Part shown: positions 2,356 to 25,202 of the stretch, piece after piece
Numbering within the stretch: position 1 is the stretch's first letter
How the letters are laid out: each line of letters starts with the position of its first letter
Source of the DNA: Candidatus Saccharimonadota bacterium
GTDB taxonomy: Bacteria > Patescibacteriota > Saccharimonadia > Saccharimonadales > UBA10212
Length of the DNA stretch: 64,000 nt
Direction: 5' to 3'
NCBI GenBank assembly: GCA_016187125.1
Contig: JACPKF010000007.1
Span: 835-64,834, forward strand
Notes under the pieces: generated by a model
Database searches by the model: none
Seen by the model: only the letters and a program-made list of their open reading frames with translations
Told to the model about the DNA's origin: nothing
Program-made: the position numbers and the translations under genes

Positions 2356-2520
2356 GTCTCAATCATAGCAAATTCATCTGTCTGCTCCGGATCACAGCCT
2401 GAGCGGAGTAGCCCCGCCCATCTCGATAAGCGGGGTTATGGAGCTTCAAGTTTTAGTGCTCGGGTTTTTACTAATGCTTGCCGTGTAGTGAGCTTTGCTC
2501 TACTACTGCGGCCCGGACCT
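2356..2520 (+). repeat. copy D: 3' module only of the A/B/C/D/E repeat family
   Basis: Starts with tagcaaattcatctgtc and ends with gcggcccggacct. The central part is expanded relative to copy B. Confidence 0.6.
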
Positions 2521-6883: not shown

Positions 6884-7300
6884 ATGGCAAAGAAGTTTAG
6901 GGATGAAGAGTTAAAGAAAAAACTTACGCTGGAGCAGTACCATATCCTGCGCGAAAAGGGGACAGAGGCTCCATTTACCGGCAAATATCTCGACCACAAA
7001 GAAGCCGGCATGTACACCTGCGCTGTCTGCGGCGCGGAACTTTTCAGCTCAAAATCTAAGTTTGAGTCCACGGCTCCGGGTCTGGCCGGTTGGCCAAGCT
7101 TCAGTGAGGCGACTAGTAACAAAGCTTTGGAACTAAAAGAGGATAATAGCAATGACCTGAACAGGATAGAAGTTACATGTGCTAACTGCGGCAGCCACTT
7201 GGGACATCTCTTCAAGGATGCACCCGACCATCCCTCCGGCAGGCACTTTTGCATTAACTCTGCCTGTCTGGGATTTGCGCCGACTGAAGATAAAAAATGA
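6884..7300 (+). CDS. msrB: peptide-methionine (R)-S-oxide reductase
   Basis: Contains CAVCGAELFSS...GWPSF...CANCGSHLGHLF, i.e. the SelR/MsrB Zn-Cys and catalytic motifs. Confidence 0.9.
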   Translation: MAKKFRDEELKKKLTLEQYHILREKGTEAPFTGKYLDHKEAGMYTCAVCGAELFSSKSKFESTAPGLAGWPSFSEATSNKALELKEDNSNDLNRIEVTCANCGSHLGHLFKDAPDHPSGRHFCINSACLGFAPTEDKK

Positions 7301-7600
7301 AGCCTCCACGGGTTTACCCCACGCACCAGAAGGCCACCGACTCCTGTCGGTGGATGATAGTTGGCGCATTGGCCTTCGGTGCGGGGTTTCGCACCGTAAT
7401 CTGGGAAGCCGCCAACTCCTGTTGGCGGTGCTTCACACCCGTGGTATCCTTCATTTCTTCGGCGGAATCCGCCGAAGCACCCTCCTTCGCTTTCCAAGCT
7501 TCGGAGGGTCCACCGTTTGCCTTCATCCATGGGCTTAGGCCCATGGTCTTTGTGCGAATGCGGATAAGCATAAAGAGGTTGCTAATAAGTAGGCTTAGGC
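7301..7600. other. hairpin-dense GC-rich non-coding block (candidate structured RNA or nested small repeats)
   Basis: Hairpins: ccaccgac-TCCT-gtcggtgg (7334-7353), gccaac-TCCT-gttggc (7411-7426), cttcggcgg-aat-ccgccgaag (7457-7477), catgggcttaggcccatg. Overlapping ORFs on both strands have no coding signal. Confidence 0.5.
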
Positions 7601-10918: not shown

Positions 10919-12088
10919 ATGCTAAAAAAGAAGACTAACGATCAATCGGCTGCCAAGCCCGATAAAGTTAAAAAACCGGGGCGAACTCCAAGAATGAAAT
11001 CGTTCGACCGAGAAATGGAGCAGCTGGTTACTCGGGGCAAAAAAGAGGGCAAGATTGAGCAGCGCGATGTTTTTGAACTAATTCCAGACACTCCGGCCAA
11101 CCTTGAAGTTTTGGACCAGCTGTATAACGAGCTGGCGGAAGCCGAAATTGAACTTATAGAAGTTGTTGAACCCAGCGTTACCGAGATTAGTGATGAGTGG
11201 GAAGAAGACGAGCCGGCAGCTGTAGTAGCACCGGTCAATACCACTTATCTAGACGATGTTTCAGACGACTCGGTCCGGCTTTATCTGCGTGAAATCGGCA
11301 AAATTCCGCTTCTGACAGCCGAAGAGGAATTAGCCCTGGCCAAAAAAGTTGTTACCGGCGACAAGCGCGCCAAAGACGCCATGGCCGAGGCTAATATGCG
11401 CCTGGTGGTTTCGATTGCTAAACGCTACGTTGGCCGAGGACTGGATCTACTGGATCTTATTCAAGAGGGCAATACTGGTCTATTGCGGGCCGTCGAAAAA
11501 TTTGATCCGGACCGGGGCTTCAAGTTCAGTACTTATGCCACTTGGTGGATTCGCCAGGCTATAACTCGGGCCATTGCCGATCAAGCCCGCACCATCAGAA
11601 TTCCAGTGCACATGGTCGAGACCATTAACAAGCTGCTACGGACTCAGCGCCGCTTGACCCAAGAGCTCAACCGCGAGCCAACCAACGAAGAAATCGGCGC
11701 CGCTATGGAAATGGACGTTGATAAAGTTGAGCACATTATGAAAATCAAGCAGGATATTTCCAGTCTTGATGCCAGCGTCCGCGACGACGAAGAAGACAGC
11801 GTGCTGGGCGATTTTATAGAGGATGAAGACACTAAAACGCCTACCGAGTCAGCCTCCGAACAGTTGCTCAAAGAACAAGTTAAAAGGATTTTAGGCACAC
11901 TGACCGAGCGCGAGCAAAAAATCCTCAAGCTTCGCTTTGGACTGGAAGACGGCAAAAGCCACACGCTGGAAGAAGTTGGCCAGGAATTTAGCGTTACTCG
12001 CGAGCGCATCCGTCAAATCGAGGCTAAAGCTCTGGCCAAGTTAAGAAAACATAAGGACACTAGAAAGCTTCATGAATATCTTCAATAG
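10919..12088 (+). CDS. rpoD: RNA polymerase primary sigma factor (sigma-70 family)
   Basis: Regions 1.2-4.2 are present: [56 protein letters not shown]. Confidence 0.95.
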
Positions 12089-12173
12089 TCATAGCACAAA
12101 CCCCGCATATTTTCATGGCGTTTCGCAATCCGCCGCAGGCGGACTGCTCCACCCAGAAAATTGGCGGGGCAGG
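12089..12173 (+). repeat. 85-nt hairpin element (family F1) with core cgcaatccgccgNaggcggactgctccaccc
   Basis: Outer inverted repeat ccccgcatattttc / gaaaattggcgggg with an inner hairpin tccgcc/ggcgga. A second copy is at 14733-14808. It sits between the two rpoD 3'-end copies. Confidence 0.75.
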
Positions 12174-12206
12174 GACACCCGCAAGTTGCATGAGTATTTG
12201 CAGTAG
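12174..12206 (+). pseudogene. displaced duplicate of the rpoD 3' end ([10 protein letters not shown])
   Basis: gac acc cgc aag ttg cat gag tat ttg cag tag encodes the same 10 aa as 12056-12088. Six codons differ, all synonymously. Its TAG abuts the ATG of the next gene. Confidence 0.85.
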
Positions 12207-12776
12207 ATGAGAATTATTGGACTTGCCGGCACCAACGGTTCAGGGAAGGATAGTTTGGGCCAGATTTTGGCTGATGGTTATGGTTACATGTTTGTGTCGG
12301 TAGCTGATTTTTTAAGGGACGAGGCTAAAAAACGCGGCTTGCCGATTGAAAGGGAAGTTTTGCGGACAATCAGCGCCGAGTGGCGCCGTGAGTACGGACT
12401 GGGGGTTTTAGTTGATAGGGCAGTAGAATTATTCCAAAAATCCGGCAAGAACTATAAAGGTTTGGCAATCAGCCCGATGCGTAACGGCGGCGAGGCCGAC
12501 AGATTAAAAGAGCTAGGCGGCAGATTAGTTTGGATAGACGCTGATCCTAAAATTCGTTACGGGCGAATAACCAATCGTGCCCGTAGCACCGAAGATAAGA
12601 AAACTTATGAGCAATTTTTAGCCGAGGAACAAGCCGAAATGCAGCCCAGCGGCGACGAGGCCACCTTGAGCTTGAGCGATGTTAAAAAACGAGCCGACAT
12701 TTTTATTCAAAATGATGTTGAATCTTTGGAAGATTTCCGCCAAATCATCGACCAAAAATTAGCTCAACTTTTGTAA
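12207..12776 (+). CDS. P-loop nucleotide/nucleoside kinase-like protein (dephospho-CoA kinase / dNMP kinase-like)
   Basis: Walker A motif GLAGTNGSGKDS at the N-terminus in a small 189-aa protein. The exact substrate is not inferable. Confidence 0.55.
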   Translation: MRIIGLAGTNGSGKDSLGQILADGYGYMFVSVADFLRDEAKKRGLPIEREVLRTISAEWRREYGLGVLVDRAVELFQKSGKNYKGLAISPMRNGGEADRLKELGGRLVWIDADPKIRYGRITNRARSTEDKKTYEQFLAEEQAEMQPSGDEATLSLSDVKKRADIFIQNDVESLEDFRQIIDQKLAQLL

Positions 12777-12791
12777 TTAACAGATCAAATT

Positions 12792-12829
12792 ATAGGAATA
12801 AATTCAGCGATCGCTGAATTTATTCCTAT
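12792..12829. terminator. perfect 38-nt palindrome centred on GCGATCGC, likely terminator
   Basis: ataggaataaattcagcga|tcgctgaatttattcctat lies 16 nt after the kinase stop. Confidence 0.6.
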
Positions 12830-13091
12830 GCAGCCTATTGACGCAAGGCGGGAAAATGCTGTATAAACTGACGCATGAGTTATTTACTCAGTCAGAATCA
12901 ATTGTTTTTTAGCTCCTCACGCGGGGGCTTAGCTTCATTTTGTAAGTAAACATAACTAAATAAAGTCAATCACAAGCCCCCAACAGGGGCTTTTTTAATA
13001 TTTAAATTTAACCCGCCATCCGCCTGAGGTGGATTGCGGGCTTGGCCGCACAAACTTCCAAAGAAGTTTAGGTGGCCGAAGGGAGAAAGAA

Positions 13092-13979
13092 ATGATCGAA
13101 ACTTACCAAAATATTCCGGTATATCACGTTGGCTCCAACGGCTCATATAGTCAAATCAATGCTGAGCGCTTGTTTGCCACAACCAGAGGAATTGAGTTTG
13201 TCCCCCAGCGAACATTTGATGATATTGCCGATGCTTTGGCAGAGAACTCTCGAGCATTGGCAGTGCTTCCCATTGAAAATAATAGCTCTGGCCGTGTGCA
13301 CGAAGTATCGGATATTTTGTTCGAAAGAAGACTAATCGTAGTCGGTGCTAATTGGCTAAGGATTCCTATGCACCTAATAGGTGTAGAAGGTGCTTCGGAA
13401 GAAACTGCGCAGATTGTGGTGTCGCAAAACCAAGCTTTAAAACAATCCAAAATATATATAGATAGTATGGATTTGAAAAGAAAACGCTATGACAGTACTT
13501 CTGAAGCAGCTCAATTTGTCGCCGCGGAAAACGATCCGCGGGTTGTTTGTCTGGGTGGTTTAACATTGGCAAGAGAAGCAGGGCTGCAAGTCATAAGAGA
13601 GCATGTTGCAAATAAAGGCGAAAATAATAAGACTAAATTCTATGTTGTCCGTGGTCGGCAAGGTGATGAAGTTCCGGAAATTCCCAAACCGAATGGTGAC
13701 GATTTAATGGTAACAATGGTGGTCGGCTTGAAAGACCGCAAAGGCTCACTCGGCCACTTCTTAGTCGAACTAGAAGATTCTGACTTACGAACAACTGTAT
13801 CTAACCCAGACCCGGAAGACGATGGCAGCCATCCGGACGAAGGCGACCACCTGTTCTGGATAGATTTTCAGGCAGCAAGTTTGGACGTTAGAAGATTATT
13901 AGAAATAGCAAGAAATAGATCACACACATTTGATTTGTTAGGTGTATATAAGTTGGGCGAAGATCAATTTGCTGAATAG
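13092..13979 (+). CDS. prephenate dehydratase-like protein (PDT domain plus C-terminal regulatory-like domain)
   Basis: GSNGSYSQINAERLF ... ALAVLPIENNSSGRVHEV matches the PDT pattern (G.GS.S, P.ENS..G.V). The start was set at the ATG preceded by gaagggag. Confidence 0.65.
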   Translation: MIETYQNIPVYHVGSNGSYSQINAERLFATTRGIEFVPQRTFDDIADALAENSRALAVLPIENNSSGRVHEVSDILFERRLIVVGANWLRIPMHLIGVEGASEETAQIVVSQNQALKQSKIYIDSMDLKRKRYDSTSEAAQFVAAENDPRVVCLGGLTLAREAGLQVIREHVANKGENNKTKFYVVRGRQGDEVPEIPKPNGDDLMVTMVVGLKDRKGSLGHFLVELEDSDLRTTVSNPDPEDDGSHPDEGDHLFWIDFQAASLDVRRLLEIARNRSHTFDLLGVYKLGEDQFAE

Positions 13980-14077
13980 AGCATCTCCTTATGATGTACT
14001 TGGTATCTACAAACCCAGACAAACCTACCCCAGCGAGTAAGAGCAGTTTTTTACGACCTACATAAACCATTCTAATA

Positions 14078-14107
14078 TTCTTAAGAATAATAGAATAGGA
14101 ATAATTA
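14078..14107. repeat. copy of the ttctaatattcttaagaatattagaa palindrome family (imperfect)
   Basis: cattctaatattcttaagaataatagaata lies about 45 nt upstream of ORF 14153. Other copies are at 48498-48523, 48780-48807 and 51421-51452. Confidence 0.7.
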
Positions 14108-14152
14108 AAGCATAAGTAGTCGCCGAGAAAACCCTGGGTTTATAATTGAAAT

Positions 14153-14692
14153 ATGTCAGAGGATTACACAGGCCCACTTCAGGTAGAAGAAATTCCTTTT
14201 AACCCTTTAAACAAAACGGGTTGGGAAAAAGAAGACGGACAAATAAATGAAGTTGTGATACGAGGAGAGCGAAAGCCAGTTCATCCAACAAATAACCTTC
14301 GAATGATTTTCGGTTTCCATAAAAGGCTAATTAGTGGCGATCGTACCGATCCTTTTATGCAGGTATACAAAGGTGTATTTCAAACAAATAGGCTAGGTGA
14401 AATTTTGGAACACTTTGGTAAAAAGTTTCCTCTTCTATATGCAAGAATGAGTGAGATTAGCGAGCAACATTATCAGAACGCGCAAGATCGGAATAATGCA
14501 TTAGTGAAGCTTGGGCCCAACTCCCCAGAATATGAGACTTTTGTCAAAAAACAAGGGCGCACTGTCGAAGAAGCGGTTGAGCAAGATTACATTTTTTCCA
14601 TGGGCTATGATGGTTTAGCCGAGTCAGCGGTTGAACTTGATCCCGAATATCCAGTAGAAAATCTTCGGGTGCTCACCGGCTATAACGGCTAA
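14153..14692 (+). CDS. hypothetical protein (179 aa)
   Basis: Intact ORF. A TATAAT (14141-14146) lies 6 nt before the ATG. No motif recognised. Confidence 0.45.
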   Translation: MSEDYTGPLQVEEIPFNPLNKTGWEKEDGQINEVVIRGERKPVHPTNNLRMIFGFHKRLISGDRTDPFMQVYKGVFQTNRLGEILEHFGKKFPLLYARMSEISEQHYQNAQDRNNALVKLGPNSPEYETFVKKQGRTVEEAVEQDYIFSMGYDGLAESAVELDPEYPVENLRVLTGYNG

Positions 14693-14732
14693 AATACCTA
14701 CCTACTATCTGTCTGGCGTATAATTTTAAGTA

Positions 14733-14808
14733 ACCCGCAGATCTTTTTGGGGAGTTGCGCAATCCGCCGAAGGCGGACTGCTCCACCCTGAAAAGGTATG
14801 GGGCAAGT
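14733..14808 (+). repeat. second copy of the F1 hairpin element
   Basis: The core gcgcaatccgccgaaggcggactgctccaccc (14757-14788) and flanking inverted repeats align with 12089-12173. Confidence 0.75.
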
Positions 14809-14819
14809 GGCAGAGACTT

Positions 14820-14852
14820 ATGAGTGAAAGAAAGAAATTAGCGATTATAGAC
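14820..14852 (+). pseudogene. displaced duplicate of the polA 5' end (MSERKKLAIID)
   Basis: atg agt gaa aga aag aaa tta gcg att ata gac parallels the real start gtg agc cgt aag aaa ttg gct atc ata gac at 14953. Differences are synonymous, apart from ATG vs GTG at the start codon and one extra codon. Confidence 0.8.
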
Positions 14853-14927
14853 CCCAGCACCAAAATCTTGAAATTCTGCAATAGGGATATTCTCCCTCTT
14901 CTGCATTCAGGATTTGGTGCGGGGCAG
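14853..14927 (+). repeat. 75-nt MITE-like element (family F2), termini cccagcaccaaaatc / gatttggtgcggggcag
   Basis: Inverted termini. The first 20 nt (23 counting the preceding gac) and the last ~20 nt are near-identical to 24539-24611. The centre is variable. Confidence 0.8.
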
Positions 14928-14952
14928 GTCGCGGCTATAGAAAGTTGGCGAA

Positions 14953-17643
14953 GTGAGCCGTAAGAAATTGGCTATCATAGACGGAAAGAGCGTTTTCTAT
15001 AGAGGGTACTACGCCTTGCCGAATTTAAGTACCAAAGACGGAATTCCGACTGGTGGAGTTTATGGTTTCGCGTCTATGAGCCTGGAGCTTATTAAAAAAC
15101 TCAAACCGGATTATGTGGCCGTAGCTTGGGATAAACCCAAAACCAACATTAGAGCCCGGCTAAAAATGTATCCGGAGTATAAGGCCGGCCGCAAACCGGC
15201 GCCGCCGGATTTTTACACCCAAATCCCGATTTTGCATGAACTGCTAGAAGCCTTCGGTTGGCCACTGTATGAACTGGACGACTATGAAGCCGACGATATT
15301 ATGGGCACCTTGGCAGTCCAGGCCCGTAAAAAAAATATCGAAACCCAGCTTATAACCTCCGATCTTGACGCCCTGCAGCTGATCAACGGTCACGTCAAGG
15401 TCTATGCCCTAAAAAAAGGCTTCTCTAATATCGAAGAGTTTCATACCGAGAGTTTTGAAGCCAAATACGGCCTCAAAGCCGAGCAATTTTTGGATCTAAA
15501 ATCTCTAAAAGGTGACAGCTCCGATAATATTCCCGGCGTACCAGGCGTGGGTGAAAAAACAGCTATTGCTCTGCTTCAACAATACAAAACCCTGGACGGA
15601 GTTTACAAAAACTTGGAGTTAGTTAAAGACAGCCTACGCAAAAAACTTGAGGACGGCAAAGACTTAGCCTATTTGAGCAAGCAACTAGCTAAACTTTGGA
15701 CTAATGCGCCGCTTAAATTGAACCTGGAGGCGATGGACACCAGTAAATGTGATACCGACCGTCTGCGGAGTTTGCTGCAGGAACTGGAATTTCGCAGTTT
15801 GCTGAACAACTTGCCGGAGAATATGCGGGTTACACCCGCAGTAACAAGTAATATGCCCCAAGCAAAAAGCGGAGATAAATTAAAGCTCCAGGAACATAAA
15901 TTAATTGATTCAGACGCTAAACTGGCTGAAATCAAGTTGGCTGGCGATAAGATTTTTATTCATTCTCGAGCTGCCGGCCGGCACGGTGCCGACCCGCAGG
16001 TTTTGATTATCGGCACCGACAAAATTTCTTACACGCTTGATTTAACCAAGCTGGACCATAAAAAGGTCCAGCAAGCTATCAGCCATCAGCTAAAGGTTAG
16101 TAGTTCGGTGGTTGGCTATGACTTGAAATCTGATATTAAAGTTTTAAAAAACCTTGGTATCCAACCGCCGCCTGTGGCTCATGACGTCCTGGTAGCGGCC
16201 TTTTTGCTAAATCCCTTAATGCGAGTTCAAACTTTGACCGAACTGGCCACGGTAAATTTGGGCTACGGCGGCACGAGCTTAGAAGATTTGCCAACTGAAG
16301 ATTTTATAGAACGCTCCGCCGAGCTTATGGCAATTCTCATTAAGCTTTACCACGTCCAGCAACACGAATTTGGCGAGGCGCCAACGCTCGAGCGCTTAGC
16401 TAAACAAATCGAATGGCCGCTTATTCCGGTGTTAGCCGATATGGAATACCGCGGTATTAAACTCGACGTTAAGTATCTGAAAAATTTTTCCAAAAAAATA
16501 GAAGATTCGATTAGCGATCTGGAGCAAACCATTTATGGCCACGCCGACTACGAGTTTAATATCAGCTCGCCGGCCCAGCTAGCAGACGTACTATTTACCA
16601 AACTCAATCTTCCCAAGCAGGGAATTAAAAAAGGCAAAACCGGCTTGTCAACGGCGGCCAGCGAGCTGGAAAAATTGCGCGGCCTGCATCCGATTATTGA
16701 TTTAATTAGCCAGTACCGCGAAGTAACTAAGCTCAAAAATACCTACGTTGACGCCTTGCCGGCCTTAGTGGACGCCAGTAGCCGCATTCACACTACTTTT
16801 AATCTGACAGTTGCTCAAACCGGCCGGCTATCGAGTGCCGATCCGAATTTGCAAAATATTCCGGTCCGCACCGAGCTGGGTAAAAATATCCGCACCGCTT
16901 TTATAGCGGAGCGCGGCAATGTTTTTGTCAGTGCCGATTACAGCCAGTTCGAAATAAGGCTAGCGGCCGCCTTTTCGGGCGACCAAGATATGATTGACGC
17001 TTTTAACCAAGATATGGACATTCATGCCGAAACCGCCGCGCTGGTGTTGGGTATCCCGGTTGATAAGGTAACTAGCGAACAGCGTTATGCGGCTAAAGCC
17101 GTCAATTTTGGCATCATGTACGGCCAAGGCCCGCATGGTCTGAGTGTTGGTACGGGTATGGATTACACAGCGGCCCGGGAATTTATTGCCAGATATTTTG
17201 AAGTGCGGCCCAAACTCAAAGAATATATAGATTCGATTCGTAGGGAAGCCGAAGAGCAGGGCTTTGTAGAGACAATCCTAGGCCGCCGCCGGCCAACTCC
17301 GGACGTTAAATCTTCTAACTTCGCGGTCCGCGAGGCTGCTTATCGGGCGGCAATAAACATGCCATTGCAAGGCAGTGCCGCCGATCTCATGAAAATGGCG
17401 ATGGTAGCGGTGAACAAAGAATTTGAGAGCCGCTACCATCGCCATCCTGAGCGGAGCGATAGCAGAGTCGAGGGATGGCCTCGAATGTTACTTCAGATCC
17501 ATGACTCTATACTTGTTGAAACCCCTGAGTCGTTAACTAAACAAGTGGGCGATTTGCTTAAGGACACCATGGAAAACATCCACAAACTACCCGTGAAGTT
17601 GGCAGTAGATATTTCTGTAGGTAAAAATTGGGGCGAACTCTAG
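14953..17643 (+). CDS. polA: DNA polymerase I
   Basis: 896 aa with a 5' nuclease N-terminus, a 3'-5' exo-like domain and pol motifs (DYSQFEIRLAA, KAVNFGIMYG, QIHDS). GTG start. Confidence 0.95.
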   Translation: MSRKKLAIIDGKSVFYRGYYALPNLSTKDGIPTGGVYGFASMSLELIKKLKPDYVAVAWDKPKTNIRARLKMYPEYKAGRKPAPPDFYTQIPILHELLEAFGWPLYELDDYEADDIMGTLAVQARKKNIETQLITSDLDALQLINGHVKVYALKKGFSNIEEFHTESFEAKYGLKAEQFLDLKSLKGDSSDNIPGVPGVGEKTAIALLQQYKTLDGVYKNLELVKDSLRKKLEDGKDLAYLSKQLAKLWTNAPLKLNLEAMDTSKCDTDRLRSLLQELEFRSLLNNLPENMRVTPAVTSNMPQAKSGDKLKLQEHKLIDSDAKLAEIKLAGDKIFIHSRAAGRHGADPQVLIIGTDKISYTLDLTKLDHKKVQQAISHQLKVSSSVVGYDLKSDIKVLKNLGIQPPPVAHDVLVAAFLLNPLMRVQTLTELATVNLGYGGTSLEDLPTEDFIERSAELMAILIKLYHVQQHEFGEAPTLERLAKQIEWPLIPVLADMEYRGIKLDVKYLKNFSKKIEDSISDLEQTIYGHADYEFNISSPAQLADVLFTKLNLPKQGIKKGKTGLSTAASELEKLRGLHPIIDLISQYREVTKLKNTYVDALPALVDASSRIHTTFNLTVAQTGRLSSADPNLQNIPVRTELGKNIRTAFIAERGNVFVSADYSQFEIRLAAAFSGDQDMIDAFNQDMDIHAETAALVLGIPVDKVTSEQRYAAKAVNFGIMYGQGPHGLSVGTGMDYTAAREFIARYFEVRPKLKEYIDSIRREAEEQGFVETILGRRRPTPDVKSSNFAVREAAYRAAINMPLQGSAADLMKMAMVAVNKEFESRYHRHPERSDSRVEGWPRMLLQIHDSILVETPESLTKQVGDLLKDTMENIHKLPVKLAVDISVGKNWGEL
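17442..17478 (+). repeat. in-frame hairpin insert (family F4, CCTGAGC...GTCGARGG) inside polA
   Basis: ccatcctgagcggagcgatagcagagtcgagggatgg is translated as HPERSDSRVEGW just upstream of the QIHDS motif. Related units are at 24445-24508 and 62650-62790. Confidence 0.65.
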
Positions 17644-23804: not shown

Positions 23805-24522
23805 AGCTGAAGCTGGGCAGGAACTAGCTGGAGCCCTTATGAAATATAAAGACAGGAACGCGGTGGTTTATGGGCTGCCGCGGGGCGGAGTAGTGGTAGC
23901 GGCCGAAGTTGCCCATGCACTTAACGCCCCTTTGGATCTGATTATTGCTAGAAAAATCGGTCATCCGGCTCACGCGGAATACGCCATCGCCGCCGTAACC
24001 GAGGACTCAGAACCTGTAGTAAATGAAGCAGAAGTTGCTTCGATTGGCAAAGACTGGTTTGAGCGAGCCCTAAAAGAACAAAGAGTCGAGGCCAAGCGCC
24101 GCCGGGAGCTTTATTTAGGTGGTCGCAGACATATTTCACCGAAAGGCAAAATCGCAATCGTGGTTGATGATGGTATAGCTACCGGTTTAACGCTCCAAGC
24201 GGCAATTAAGAGCTTAAAGCCCCGGCGTCCAGCTAAAATTGTGGTGGCCGTGCCAGTGGCGCCGGATGATACAGTAGCTGAAATAGAAGCTGAAGTAGAT
24301 GAGATGGTATGCTTGCATAAGGAAAAAGATTTTTTTGGCGCCGTTGGCAGCTATTATCAATTTTTTGAGCAAGTAGAAGACAGCGAAGTTATTGATCTTC
24401 TGCAAGAGTTTGATACGTACGACCCATTCGATAAAACTCAGGCTCGTCCTGAGCAACGTCGAACGGACGACGAGCTCAGTATCAATCCTGAGCATAGTCG
24501 AAGGATTGAAAATGAGCATTGA
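23791..24522 (+). CDS. phosphoribosyltransferase-family protein
   Basis: The PRPP loop IVVDDGIATGLT is present. The N-terminus RDRAEAGQELA..YGLPRGGVVVA is typical of putative PRTases. The C-terminal ~30 aa are encoded by F4 repeats. Confidence 0.7.
   Translation: MWRDRAEAGQELAGALMKYKDRNAVVYGLPRGGVVVAAEVAHALNAPLDLIIARKIGHPAHAEYAIAAVTEDSEPVVNEAEVASIGKDWFERALKEQRVEAKRRRELYLGGRRHISPKGKIAIVVDDGIATGLTLQAAIKSLKPRRPAKIVVAVPVAPDDTVAEIEAEVDEMVCLHKEKDFFGAVGSYYQFFEQVEDSEVIDLLQEFDTYDPFDKTQARPEQRRTDDELSINPEHSRRIENEH
24445..24508 (+). repeat. two tandem F4 hairpins forming the C-terminal tail of the PRTase
   Basis: The hairpins are cgtcctgagcaacgtcgaacggacg and caatcctgagcatagtcgaaggattg. Confidence 0.65.
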
Positions 24523-24538
24523 AGCCGTAATATTCGAC
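24512..24538 (+). pseudogene. displaced duplicate of the HAD-hydrolase 5' end (MSIEAVIFD)
   Basis: atg agc att gaa gcc gta ata ttc gac overlaps the stop of the upstream gene. It parallels the real start gtg att aaa gcc gtg ata ttt gac at 24630. Confidence 0.8.
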
Positions 24539-24611
24539 CCCAGCACCAAAATCTTGAAGCTCCATAATCTGATTGCAGACTACTTAAGCTCAGGATTTGG
24601 TGCGAGGCAAG
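24539..24611 (+). repeat. second copy of the F2 MITE-like element
   Basis: cccagcaccaaaatcttgaa ... tcaggatttggtgcgaggcaag has the same termini as 14853-14927. Confidence 0.8.
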
Positions 24612-24629
24612 TTGCTTTGGGGTATCGCA

Positions 24630-25202
24630 GTGATTAAAGCCGTGATATTTGACTGCTTCGGTGTCTTAACGAAGGATTGGTGGCGGGAATTTTGTGCCTC
24701 AGTACCGCCCGGCCCGGGTCTGCAAAAAGCCAAAGAGCTCAACCACCTCTATGACGCCGGACTTATAAGCTTGAAAGAATTTGTAGCCGGTGTTGAACAA
24801 GTCACGGGCCGTGAACCCCAACCGATCGAAGACATTTTTGCTAGTCCCGAGCCAATTAAAAACACTACTTTGCTTGAATATATAAAAAGCTTAAAAACTG
24901 GCTACAAGATTGGCATGATTAGCAACGTGGGCACTAATTGGGTGAGGGATTATTTTTTGAGCCCTGAGGAGCAAAGGCTTTTTGACGATATGGTGTTTTC
25001 TTTTGAGGTCGGAACTACCAAACCTGACCCCAGGATTTACGAGCTAGCTACCAAGCGTCTGGGCCTTAAGCCCCAGGACTGCGTTTTTATAGACGATATT
25101 GAAAGATATTGCGAAGCCGCTCGGGCCACAGGCATGAAGGCTATCCTATACAAAGACTTTGAACAGATGAAAACTGAGCTCGATAAGCTTCTTCAGGCCT
25201 GA
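24630..25202 (+). CDS. HAD-superfamily hydrolase (subfamily IA-like)
   Basis: Motif I AVIFDCFGVLT, later SNVG and the DD motif FIDDIERY. GTG start; the ORF track starts at 24597 inside the F2 element. Confidence 0.75.
   Translation: MIKAVIFDCFGVLTKDWWREFCASVPPGPGLQKAKELNHLYDAGLISLKEFVAGVEQVTGREPQPIEDIFASPEPIKNTTLLEYIKSLKTGYKIGMISNVGTNWVRDYFLSPEEQRLFDDMVFSFEVGTTKPDPRIYELATKRLGLKPQDCVFIDDIERYCEAARATGMKAILYKDFEQMKTELDKLLQA

Follow-up and report, generated by a model that had tools for sequence, protein, structure and literature searches.

Why should an essential gene appear to begin twice? In the 64,000-nt stretch of a Candidatus Saccharimonadota genome analysed here (contig JACPKF010000007.1; henceforth the window), a truncated copy of the first codons of the DNA polymerase I gene (polA) precedes the functional gene, a 75-nt hairpin element (F2) lies between the two, and another such element (F1) stands just upstream. 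Throughout, the copy that belongs to the functional gene is called live and the other one ghost. The same architecture, a gene end repeated on either side of an F element with mostly silent differences, occurs at two further sites of the window and in other Saccharibacteria. The explanation we prefer, and hold with about even confidence, is that F1 and F2 insert where genes begin or end, that the long target duplication made in the process restores the gene terminus, and that the insertion then spreads horizontally together with one of the two copies. It seems to be a route, so far undescribed, by which selfish DNA can settle in essential genes and do no harm. The elements themselves apparently represent an undescribed variant of the MITEs (miniature transposable elements with inverted repeats), namely hairpin elements of the Candidate Phyla Radiation (CPR) flanked by long duplications of gene termini that are recoded in the manner of orthologues. 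No description of the family was found in Rfam or in the searchable literature on Saccharibacteria and Patescibacteria. The genomes of Saccharibacteria and other CPR bacteria are tiny and tightly packed, so that nearly any insertion should strike a gene; a second copy of the terminus, which keeps polA, sigma-70, ychF and pnp whole, is a way round the packed genome.

Two starts of polA and other duplicated gene ends

At polA, the original prediction of a pseudo-start cut off by F2 and followed, after a 25-nt gap, by a GTG start held in every coordinate and in the sequence itself (Table 1). The ghost (ATG AGT GAA AGA AAG AAA TTA GCG ATT ATA GAC) and the live start (GTG AGC CGT AAG AAA TTG GCT ATC ATA GAC GGA, i.e. 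MSRKKLAIIDG) differ at six nucleotides and at no amino acid across nine aligned codons. The differences are thus silent, as had been claimed, save for ATG versus GTG and one additional GAA codon in the ghost. The score of the direct repeat (31) exceeded those of all 100 shuffled flanks (maximum 24). Between the copies, F2 reads CCCAGCACC...GGTGCGGGGCAG, with the 3' end GATTTGGTGCGGGGCAG; its termini are CCCAGCACCAAAATC and GATTTGGTGCGGGG, with the tail CAG, and it folds into a single long hairpin (-33.3 kcal/mol, z = -5.3). F1 sits between a -10-like box and the ghost ATG, its tail GGGGCAAG finishing at 14807 and leaving the expected 12 nt (14808-14819) before the pseudo-start. Beyond the start codons, the duplication probably takes in the leader and the -10 box further upstream, flush with the F2 tail, and the spacer between F2 and the GTG resembles a duplicated polA leader without F1, i.e. 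an empty site for F1; both readings come from comparing the letters and are suggestive only. A promoter and terminator consensus scan of 14600-15100 made no call, the -10-like box included; since the strict promoter scan finds nothing, it is conservation in relatives that identifies the box.

The GTG copy is the functional start and the upstream ATG copy a truncated remnant, in agreement with the original prediction. The 896-codon open reading frame (ORF) that begins with GTG is 100% identical, at equal length, to the NCBI entry "DNA polymerase I" of Candidatus Saccharibacteria bacterium (P0001). Most of the 119 polA homologues (all from Saccharibacteria, all at most 77% identical) start M[AS]ERKKLAIIDGKSVFYRGYY, and the GTG product (MSRKKLAIIDGKS...) shows the same N-terminal length and sequence as these homologues; because most of them begin alike, its N-terminus can be taken as complete. 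The GTG is also the first start codon past an in-frame stop (TAG 14938-14940), and the frame of the upstream ATG crosses F2 and ends shortly after the GTG. The ghost peptide MSERKKLAIID fits the clade consensus M[AS]ERKKLAIID but is truncated after Asp11. In the relatives L001 and L003 the polA start carries neither F1 nor F2, and the ATG is preceded, at 8-11 nt, by a GCGTATAAT/GCGTATACT box. Several database entries for polA (P0006, P0012 and similar ones; L001 3001, L003 3001) start internally, with MAIIDGK... or MPNLSTK...; these are start-codon miscalls and not insertions, the DNA carrying a normal ATG GCN GAG/GGT AGG AAA start.

It is highly improbable that the upstream ATG is the real start and that F2 is removed like an intron, or bypassed from the GAC at 14850 to the GAC at 14980, to give a product beginning MSERKKLAIIDGKSV. 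Matching GAC codons do flank the gap, and a stable hairpin starts directly after the first of them. The downstream ORF, however, has its own GTG start and a complete N-terminus of orthologue length, and a bypass element is both unnecessary and unsupported here; the gap measures 130 nt (in T4 gene 60 it is 50 nt), and the take-off codon is not followed by a stop. Skipping would also be purposeless at duplicated 3' ends, where the first copy already has its stop codon. No curated covariance model matched, which led us to reject a group I or II intron, a ribozyme or another known RNA family.

The original prediction had left out that the architecture recurs. A HAD hydrolase gene of the window begins with GTG ATT AAA GCC GTG ATA TTT GAC TGC TTC GGT, and upstream of it stand a second F2 and a ghost reading ATG AGC ATT GAA GCC GTA ATA TTC GAC; the GTG copy is the real start, because the start of the L003 orthologue (MIKAIIFDCFGVLT) agrees with it. 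At the sigma-70 gene it is the 3' end that is duplicated, around a second F1. Its live end (GAC ACT AGA AAG CTT CAT GAA TAT CTT CAA TAG) and ghost end (GAC ACC CGC AAG TTG CAT GAG TAT TTG CAG TAG) differ at nine nucleotides, every one synonymous. The live end is identical to the ghost at 24 of 33 positions, to its orthologue in L003 at 24 of 33 and to that in L001 at 23 of 33, and both orthologues encode the identical ten residues. At the same site, the 12 nt expected to be the ghost start of the next gene retain no similarity, and the sigma-70 ghost is intact.

Positions 12098-14809, which stretch from the ghost end of sigma-70 as far as the leader of polA, are enclosed by the two F1 copies, both of which point the same way. 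In relatives, a second sigma-70 gene is present there, and the prephenate dehydratase gene (13029-13979) and an unknown gene (14153-14692) are absent; the interval has evidently been rearranged between the F1 copies, because the gene content of the relatives differs there.

Five further copies duplicate 3' gene ends on other Saccharibacteria contigs (L009, L010, L011, L020b and L023), and the window holds the empty orthologue of the pnp 3'-end site occupied in L023. The flanking repeats beat shuffled controls at polA, HAD, L010, L011 and L023, and reached the 95th percentile at L009; those of L020b and of a non-coding duplication near hrcA (L025b) were judged by inspection, with no shuffled control. 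In L025 (11263-11339), a copy of the family closely precedes the promoter and CIRCE operator of hrcA, with the flanks GTTTGTTAGCACTCTTGAC and GTTTTTGGCAGTCTTGAC; the -35 region is thus present twice, and a perfect CIRCE half-site stands in its upstream copy. This recurrence bears on whether strain variants were collapsed or joined at a repeat during assembly. Although the source is a metagenome-assembled genome (MAG), the architecture is present at three sites of the contig and in assemblies made independently, in different studies and from different samples (L009, L010/L020, L011, L020b, L023), and an artefact of this kind is scarcely credible.

Eight coding duplications were pooled (window 12056/12174, 14829/14959 and 24518/24633; L009, L010, L011, L020 and L023). 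They contain 57 differences in 216 nt, distributed 10/5/42 over codon positions 1/2/3, and nine amino-acid differences where random placement gives 36.8 +/- 2.7 (0 of 20000 simulations). By a count over the pooled codon pairs, about 85% of the 4- and 6-fold and about 44% of the 2-fold degenerate codons differ, which, as read from the codons, is ordinary saturation. Among the pooled pairs are also indels of whole codons in frame and a K/R change that takes three steps (AAG versus CGT), and the ghost peptides are natural orthologue variants (MSERKK for polA, VVEFKFNV for YchF). A neutrally decaying target duplication cannot yield third-position-only differences at saturation and was rejected.

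That, after a recent insertion whose repeats were identical, the live copy was driven to change everywhere tolerated, thereby stopping repeat-mediated deletion or targeting by a guide RNA made of element plus ghost, would fit the facts that all differences are tolerated ones and that the ghost resembles the consensus. We nevertheless regard adaptive recoding of this sort as very unlikely. The pattern is saturation and not maximal recoding, and the codon indels and the K/R change have the look of a long separation of orthologues. The element could be lost precisely and without harm, so that selection for stabilising it should be weak, and no nuclease partner is known.

Table 1. Position and basis of the features discussed (window coordinates), with the gene ends duplicated in other genomes
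Locus	Feature	Coordinates	Strand	Basis or remark
polA	-10-like box GGCGTATAAT, native polA leader, putative left copy of the duplication	14716..14725	+	Conserved in empty-site relatives L001, L003
polA	F1 hairpin element	14731..14809	+	Covariance-model match 59.1 bits, E = 4e-11; hairpin fold
polA	Ghost start, ATG + 10 codons (MSERKKLAIID)	14820..14852	+	F2 cuts precisely behind GAC
polA	Bridging ORF, 47 codons	14820..14963	+	Ghost start, F2 as PSTKIL...SGFGAGQ, TAA 14961-14963, 8 nt into polA
polA	F2 hairpin element, 75 nt	14853..14927	+	Covariance-model match 14850-14930, 84.8 bits
polA	Spacer, 25 nt (GGCTATAGAAAGT then TGGCGAA)	14928..14952	+	Sequence and alignment
polA	Functional gene, GTG start, 896 aa	14953..17643	+	ORF, homologues
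sigma-70	Functional last 10 codons and stop	12056..12088	+	
sigma-70	Second F1 copy	12098..12175	+	Covariance model 58.7 bits, hairpin fold
sigma-70	Ghost 3' end (10 codons and stop)	12174..12206	+	Abuts next gene's ATG (12207)
HAD	Ghost start (MSIEAVIFD)	24513..24538	+	ATG overlaps stop of upstream phosphoribosyltransferase gene
HAD	Second F2 copy	24539..24611	+	Covariance model 84.3 bits; 97% identical to L007 and L010 copies
HAD	Functional hydrolase gene, GTG start (MIKAVIFDCFGVL)	24630..25202	+	L003 orthologue start
Window	Degenerate F2-like copy	2379..2466	-	Covariance model 19.8 bits, E = 0.06; sequence inspected
L009	Duplicated gene end AEIKM*			
L010	Duplicated ADI/DDAH-like gene end VKCLTLELDL*			10 differences, all synonymous
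L011	Duplicated ychF end			VIEFRFNV* vs VVEFKFNV*
L020b	Duplicated gene end YIDKAGSGSRV*			Second copy decaying
L023	Duplicated pnp end			RAVAREK... vs RAVAKEK...
L025b	Non-coding duplication			-35/CIRCE region of hrcA

The F1/F2 family

The best reading of F1 and F2 is that they form one superfamily of MITE-like, non-coding, hairpin-forming elements of about 75-85 nt, found in Saccharibacteria and some other Patescibacteria. The elements (75-85 nt, with no coding capacity of their own) have the common ends AACCCC(A)GC ... GCGGGGCARG, a conserved basal stem with compensatory changes from F1 to F2, a variable apical hairpin and the motif ACT(A/G)CTCC on the 3' side of the hairpin. In all, 16 pairs are conserved, and seven of these show compensatory changes. 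The terminal inverted repeats of F2, CCCAGCACCAAA and TTTGGTGCGGGG, are 92% complementary, and the hairpin spans the whole length. Of the claim that two different small elements are stacked at one gene start, the stacking stands, and the difference is a limited one, given the shared ends, basal stem and internal motif. The term MITE likewise suits as a structural label (size, inverted repeats, dispersed copies), but the fixed short target duplication that it implies does not apply. No transposase, recombinase or cognate autonomous insertion sequence (IS) turned up, the Pfam survey covering 28 of the 63 window ORFs.

Five copies of the family lie in the window: two F1, two F2 and one degenerate F2-like copy, which sits between two minus-strand genes and has its 5' arm and apical hairpin intact and its 3' arm decayed. 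An exact or 3-mismatch search of the window with the polA F2 returned only itself; the other copies were found by blastn-short and a covariance model. Scans with F2 patterns gave 8 loci in species-representative genomes and 12 in JGI metagenomes, making 15 distinct F2 loci including the two of the window, and the covariance model yielded further copies beyond the pattern matches. The hosts are Saccharimonadales MAGs, one "Patescibacteria group" MAG and one Taylorbacteria MAG; scans of viral contigs for F2 and F1 gave zero matches. The majority of copies are no farther than about 35 nt from a gene end, and at least nine different genes are targeted. A tblastx comparison of all element flanks against one another found no gene with an insertion in two genomes. 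Genomes with 65-79% nucleotide identity in their common housekeeping genes have F2 copies that are 83-97% identical, i.e. conservation is higher in the element than in the genes that surround it.

Nearly all copies of F2 are free of stops in one frame per strand. A protein search with the concatenated F2-encoded peptides found a single protein (P0241), and F2 therefore seems to lie only rarely within called ORFs. In L021 (208-287), to judge by the sequence, F2 sits in frame within a murB-like ORF (...KYPGIKGW-TQHQNLDNQNRGIPSLQSSGFGAGQAQDD-KVKISAGWLLEEAGF), as a translated insertion with no obvious duplication, resembling those of the Rickettsia palindromic elements (RPE). At one species' locus sampled repeatedly, L005/L019/L022 and L014 (different samples) have identical flanks and basal stem and differ in the apical hairpin (CCCCGCCAGAGGCGGG versus TCTGATTACAG), from which it would follow that the apical module is exchanged between strains. 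A Candidatus Taylorbacteria MAG (L012, 2893-2968), from another class of Patescibacteria, contains an F2 with the same 14-nt and 10-nt arms, which suggests transfer well past the Saccharibacteria.

Comparison with other classes of small structured sequence was negative. Rfam gave no match at gathering score in the window and, under permissive settings, only chance-level hits (E >= 0.3) in 14650-15050; a tRNA search of the window found none. An intrinsic or REP-like terminator was rejected, as no terminator-like site was found in 14600-15100 and the element tails (GGGGCARG) have no T-run. A resemblance of the flanks to integron attC sites (RYYYAAC ... GTTRRRY), checked by eye, proved inconsistent across copies.

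Origin of the duplicated ends

Under the explanation we prefer, the element would transpose with a long and variable target duplication (17 to about 60 nt), for which IS1634 and IS1549 provide a precedent. Insertions in terminal codons would survive only if the duplication rebuilds the gene end, one copy completing the gene and the other staying joined to the neighbouring signals; at polA, the duplicated 5' region would span from about the -10 box to codon 11. The occupied allele would then spread by homologous recombination into empty orthologous sites of diverged lineages. The added heterologous loop would consist of the element plus one repeat with donor sequence, the other repeat being the recipient's own, and the two copies would stem from two lineages, each having once been a working gene end. 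Because the copies differ like orthologues of separate lineages, we infer an origin of the insertion outside this genome. Similarity between the repeats would be visible only at coding termini, the -35 box and the ribosome-binding site, because it is these that are conserved between orthologues. The silent, orthologue-like divergence, together with the highly conserved element, would imply an exchange of DNA beyond the usual range of homologous recombination.

The geometry of the repeats fits this explanation in part and a close rival in part. Xenologous replacement of a gene or gene end, in which a foreign fragment bearing polA (or sigma-70, ychF and so on) and an F element beside the gene end came in by transformation, recombined homologously inside the conserved gene and had its F end joined illegitimately a few codons into the native one, would leave the ghost as the native remnant and the element as the mark of the joint; we consider it rather unlikely. 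Across copies, the flanking repeats measure 0 to about 60 nt at 67-86% identity, with no fixed short length, and the ghost always sharply abuts one element end (at the junction RAC|CCCAGC or at the CARG tail); the target motif would seem to be ...TTRAC|. In several cases 2-44 nt of unrelated sequence part the live copy from the other element end (sigma-70, 12; L009, 10; L010, 44), which speaks for a replacement, as do the orthologue-level divergence of the copies and the rearrangement of the sigma-70-to-polA interval, bounded by two F1 copies, relative to L001 and L003. Ghosts are, however, uniformly short (18-60 nt), where random joints would vary broadly, and at polA, L011 and L020b both copies lie flush with the element ends, as they would in a target duplication. 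Phylogenetic discordance, moreover, could not be demonstrated. Replacement could not be told apart from insertion followed by spread, because the databases hold no close relatives.

The open frames across the elements bring in another consideration. At polA and HAD, the ghost start and the native upstream signals would open an ORF across the stop-free frame of F2 that ends atop the GTG; the one at HAD (24513-24637) crosses F2 in the same frame as at polA (PSTKIL...SGFGA.Q) and stops 5 nt after the GTG. Bridging ORFs also lead from sigma-70 to a kinase gene (ATG 12072 to TAG 12206, then ATG 12207), from pnp to the next gene in L023 and, with 86 codons, to gmk in L025. An ORF that terminates atop the next start is the classical layout for coupling by termination and re-initiation, and translation may well be coupled in this manner here; the live polA GTG would probably use its own leader and/or re-initiation after the bridging ORF.

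If such translation, or the initiation region of the neighbour, were under selection, the duplication might be old and have arisen in situ, the ghost being kept while the live copy drifts synonymously. At polA, HAD, sigma-70, L010 (from an ATG inside F2), L011 and L023 the ghost is read in frame by an ORF, which at polA, HAD, sigma-70 and L023 ends at or beside the next start; the ghosts also look ancestral or consensus-like. The copy-to-copy distances (130, 115, 118, 100, 142, 109, 115 and 113 nt) are 1 mod 3 in seven of eight cases, a bias that hints at a translation-linked constraint, even though L023 (113) rules out a strict 3n+1 rule. On balance we find this unlikely. Stops within the element close the ghost frame at L009 and L010, so that the ghost is not always translated, and the ghosts of L010 and L011 lie in a 3' region with no start downstream. 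The insertions are not common to genera, their sites being empty in relatives, and the divergence of the element, far below that of the genes, speaks against a great age. At the sigma-70 site, finally, the 12 nt that should be the next gene's ghost start show no remaining similarity while the sigma-70 ghost is intact.

Several observations weigh against insertion followed by horizontal spread. No autonomous partner or transposase was found among the window ORFs surveyed, so that transposition enters as a conditional step, and homologous recombination across 65-79% identity should be very inefficient. Neither the donor nor the recipient state is observable: in a search for pairs of filled and empty alleles among close relatives, the nearest polA (77%) and the nearest YchF (75% amino-acid identity) yielded no pair. 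About 20 loci include no identical, i.e. fresh, duplication, although this, like the lack of a duplication at most intergenic copies, is expected if the similarity of the copies mirrors conservation between lineages. The copy in L013 lies exactly between two stop codons with no recognisable duplication and, with the in-frame insertion of L021, shows that duplication length is not fixed. The preference for distances of 1 mod 3 (about 0.8% chance for any one class, by a binomial estimate) is predicted by none of the explanations considered, and the codon usage of ghost versus live copies, set against 17,318 window codons, did not discriminate a foreign copy.

A bolder version, which we think improbable, makes the element together with the adjoining copy of the gene end the unit that moves: a self-rescuing "homing cassette" bearing the terminus of its target, possibly as a targeting arm or guide. 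Such a cassette would enter the termini of essential genes across deeply diverged lineages, leaving the gene intact and its neighbour coupled through an ORF that crosses the hairpin.

Should insertion followed by horizontal spread be correct, the elements would allow gene flow to be traced in an uncultivated phylum. Gene callers can be misled by the ghost starts and ends during annotation, the real starts being GTG codons behind an upstream ORF that is probably coupled to them. The window also holds, on its minus strand, a segment of about 250 nt rich in hairpins (7290-7540; minimum free energy -121 kcal/mol, z = -6.6), which ends in a U-run and looks like an unannotated structured non-coding RNA; it had no Rfam match at E <= 1, and the overlapping ORF falls in no Pfam family.

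Comparison with known systems

Among bacterial MITEs and palindromic repeats (Correia/NEMIS, RUP, ERIC, REPIN), F1 and F2 find their nearest structural counterparts: both are small and non-coding, with terminal inverted repeats and a hairpin over the whole length. They are also alike in their many copies at gene boundaries, in presence and absence at orthologous sites and in co-transcription with genes. Classical MITEs, however, have short target duplications of fixed length, whereas the F1/F2 repeats measure 17 to about 60 nt, are never identical and have diverged like orthologues. The F elements further differ in that no cognate IS was found among the window ORFs surveyed, and in that F2 is more conserved across genera than housekeeping genes.

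RPEs are palindromes with open reading frames that enter protein-coding genes (PMC10969869). F2 resembles them in its open frames, and the copy in L021 is the only one met that reads as an in-frame, translated insertion. At polA, HAD, sigma-70, ychF and pnp, in contrast, F2 or F1 lies outside the functional ORF, and it is the gene end that is duplicated instead.

Long target duplications of variable length, 8-514 bp, are known from IS1634/IS1549 (PMC2266710). The repeats of F1 and F2 would fit these in length and variability, although neither an identical fresh repeat nor a transposase was seen. IS1634/IS1549 are autonomous IS of 1.5-2 kb with identical fresh repeats, and they bear no sequence relationship to F1/F2.

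The hairpin insert between the matching codons GAC...GAC at polA is reminiscent of programmed translational bypass, as in T4 gene 60 and the mitochondrial byp elements. The gap at polA is much longer, the downstream part has its own start, and the same elements also sit after stop codons.

Integrative elements that supply a replacement gene end include phage 21 and e14 in icd and the islands in the 3' ends of tRNA genes or rlmH; they are of kilobase scale, carry an integrase and use one fixed target gene, and their two termini differ mainly at synonymous sites since one of them was brought in from elsewhere. As in these, a gene terminus stands on both sides of the F insert, the differences between the copies are mainly synonymous and the gene remains functional. 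The F insert, however, measures some 75 nt, bears no gene or recombinase, and enters many target genes at both their 5' and their 3' ends.

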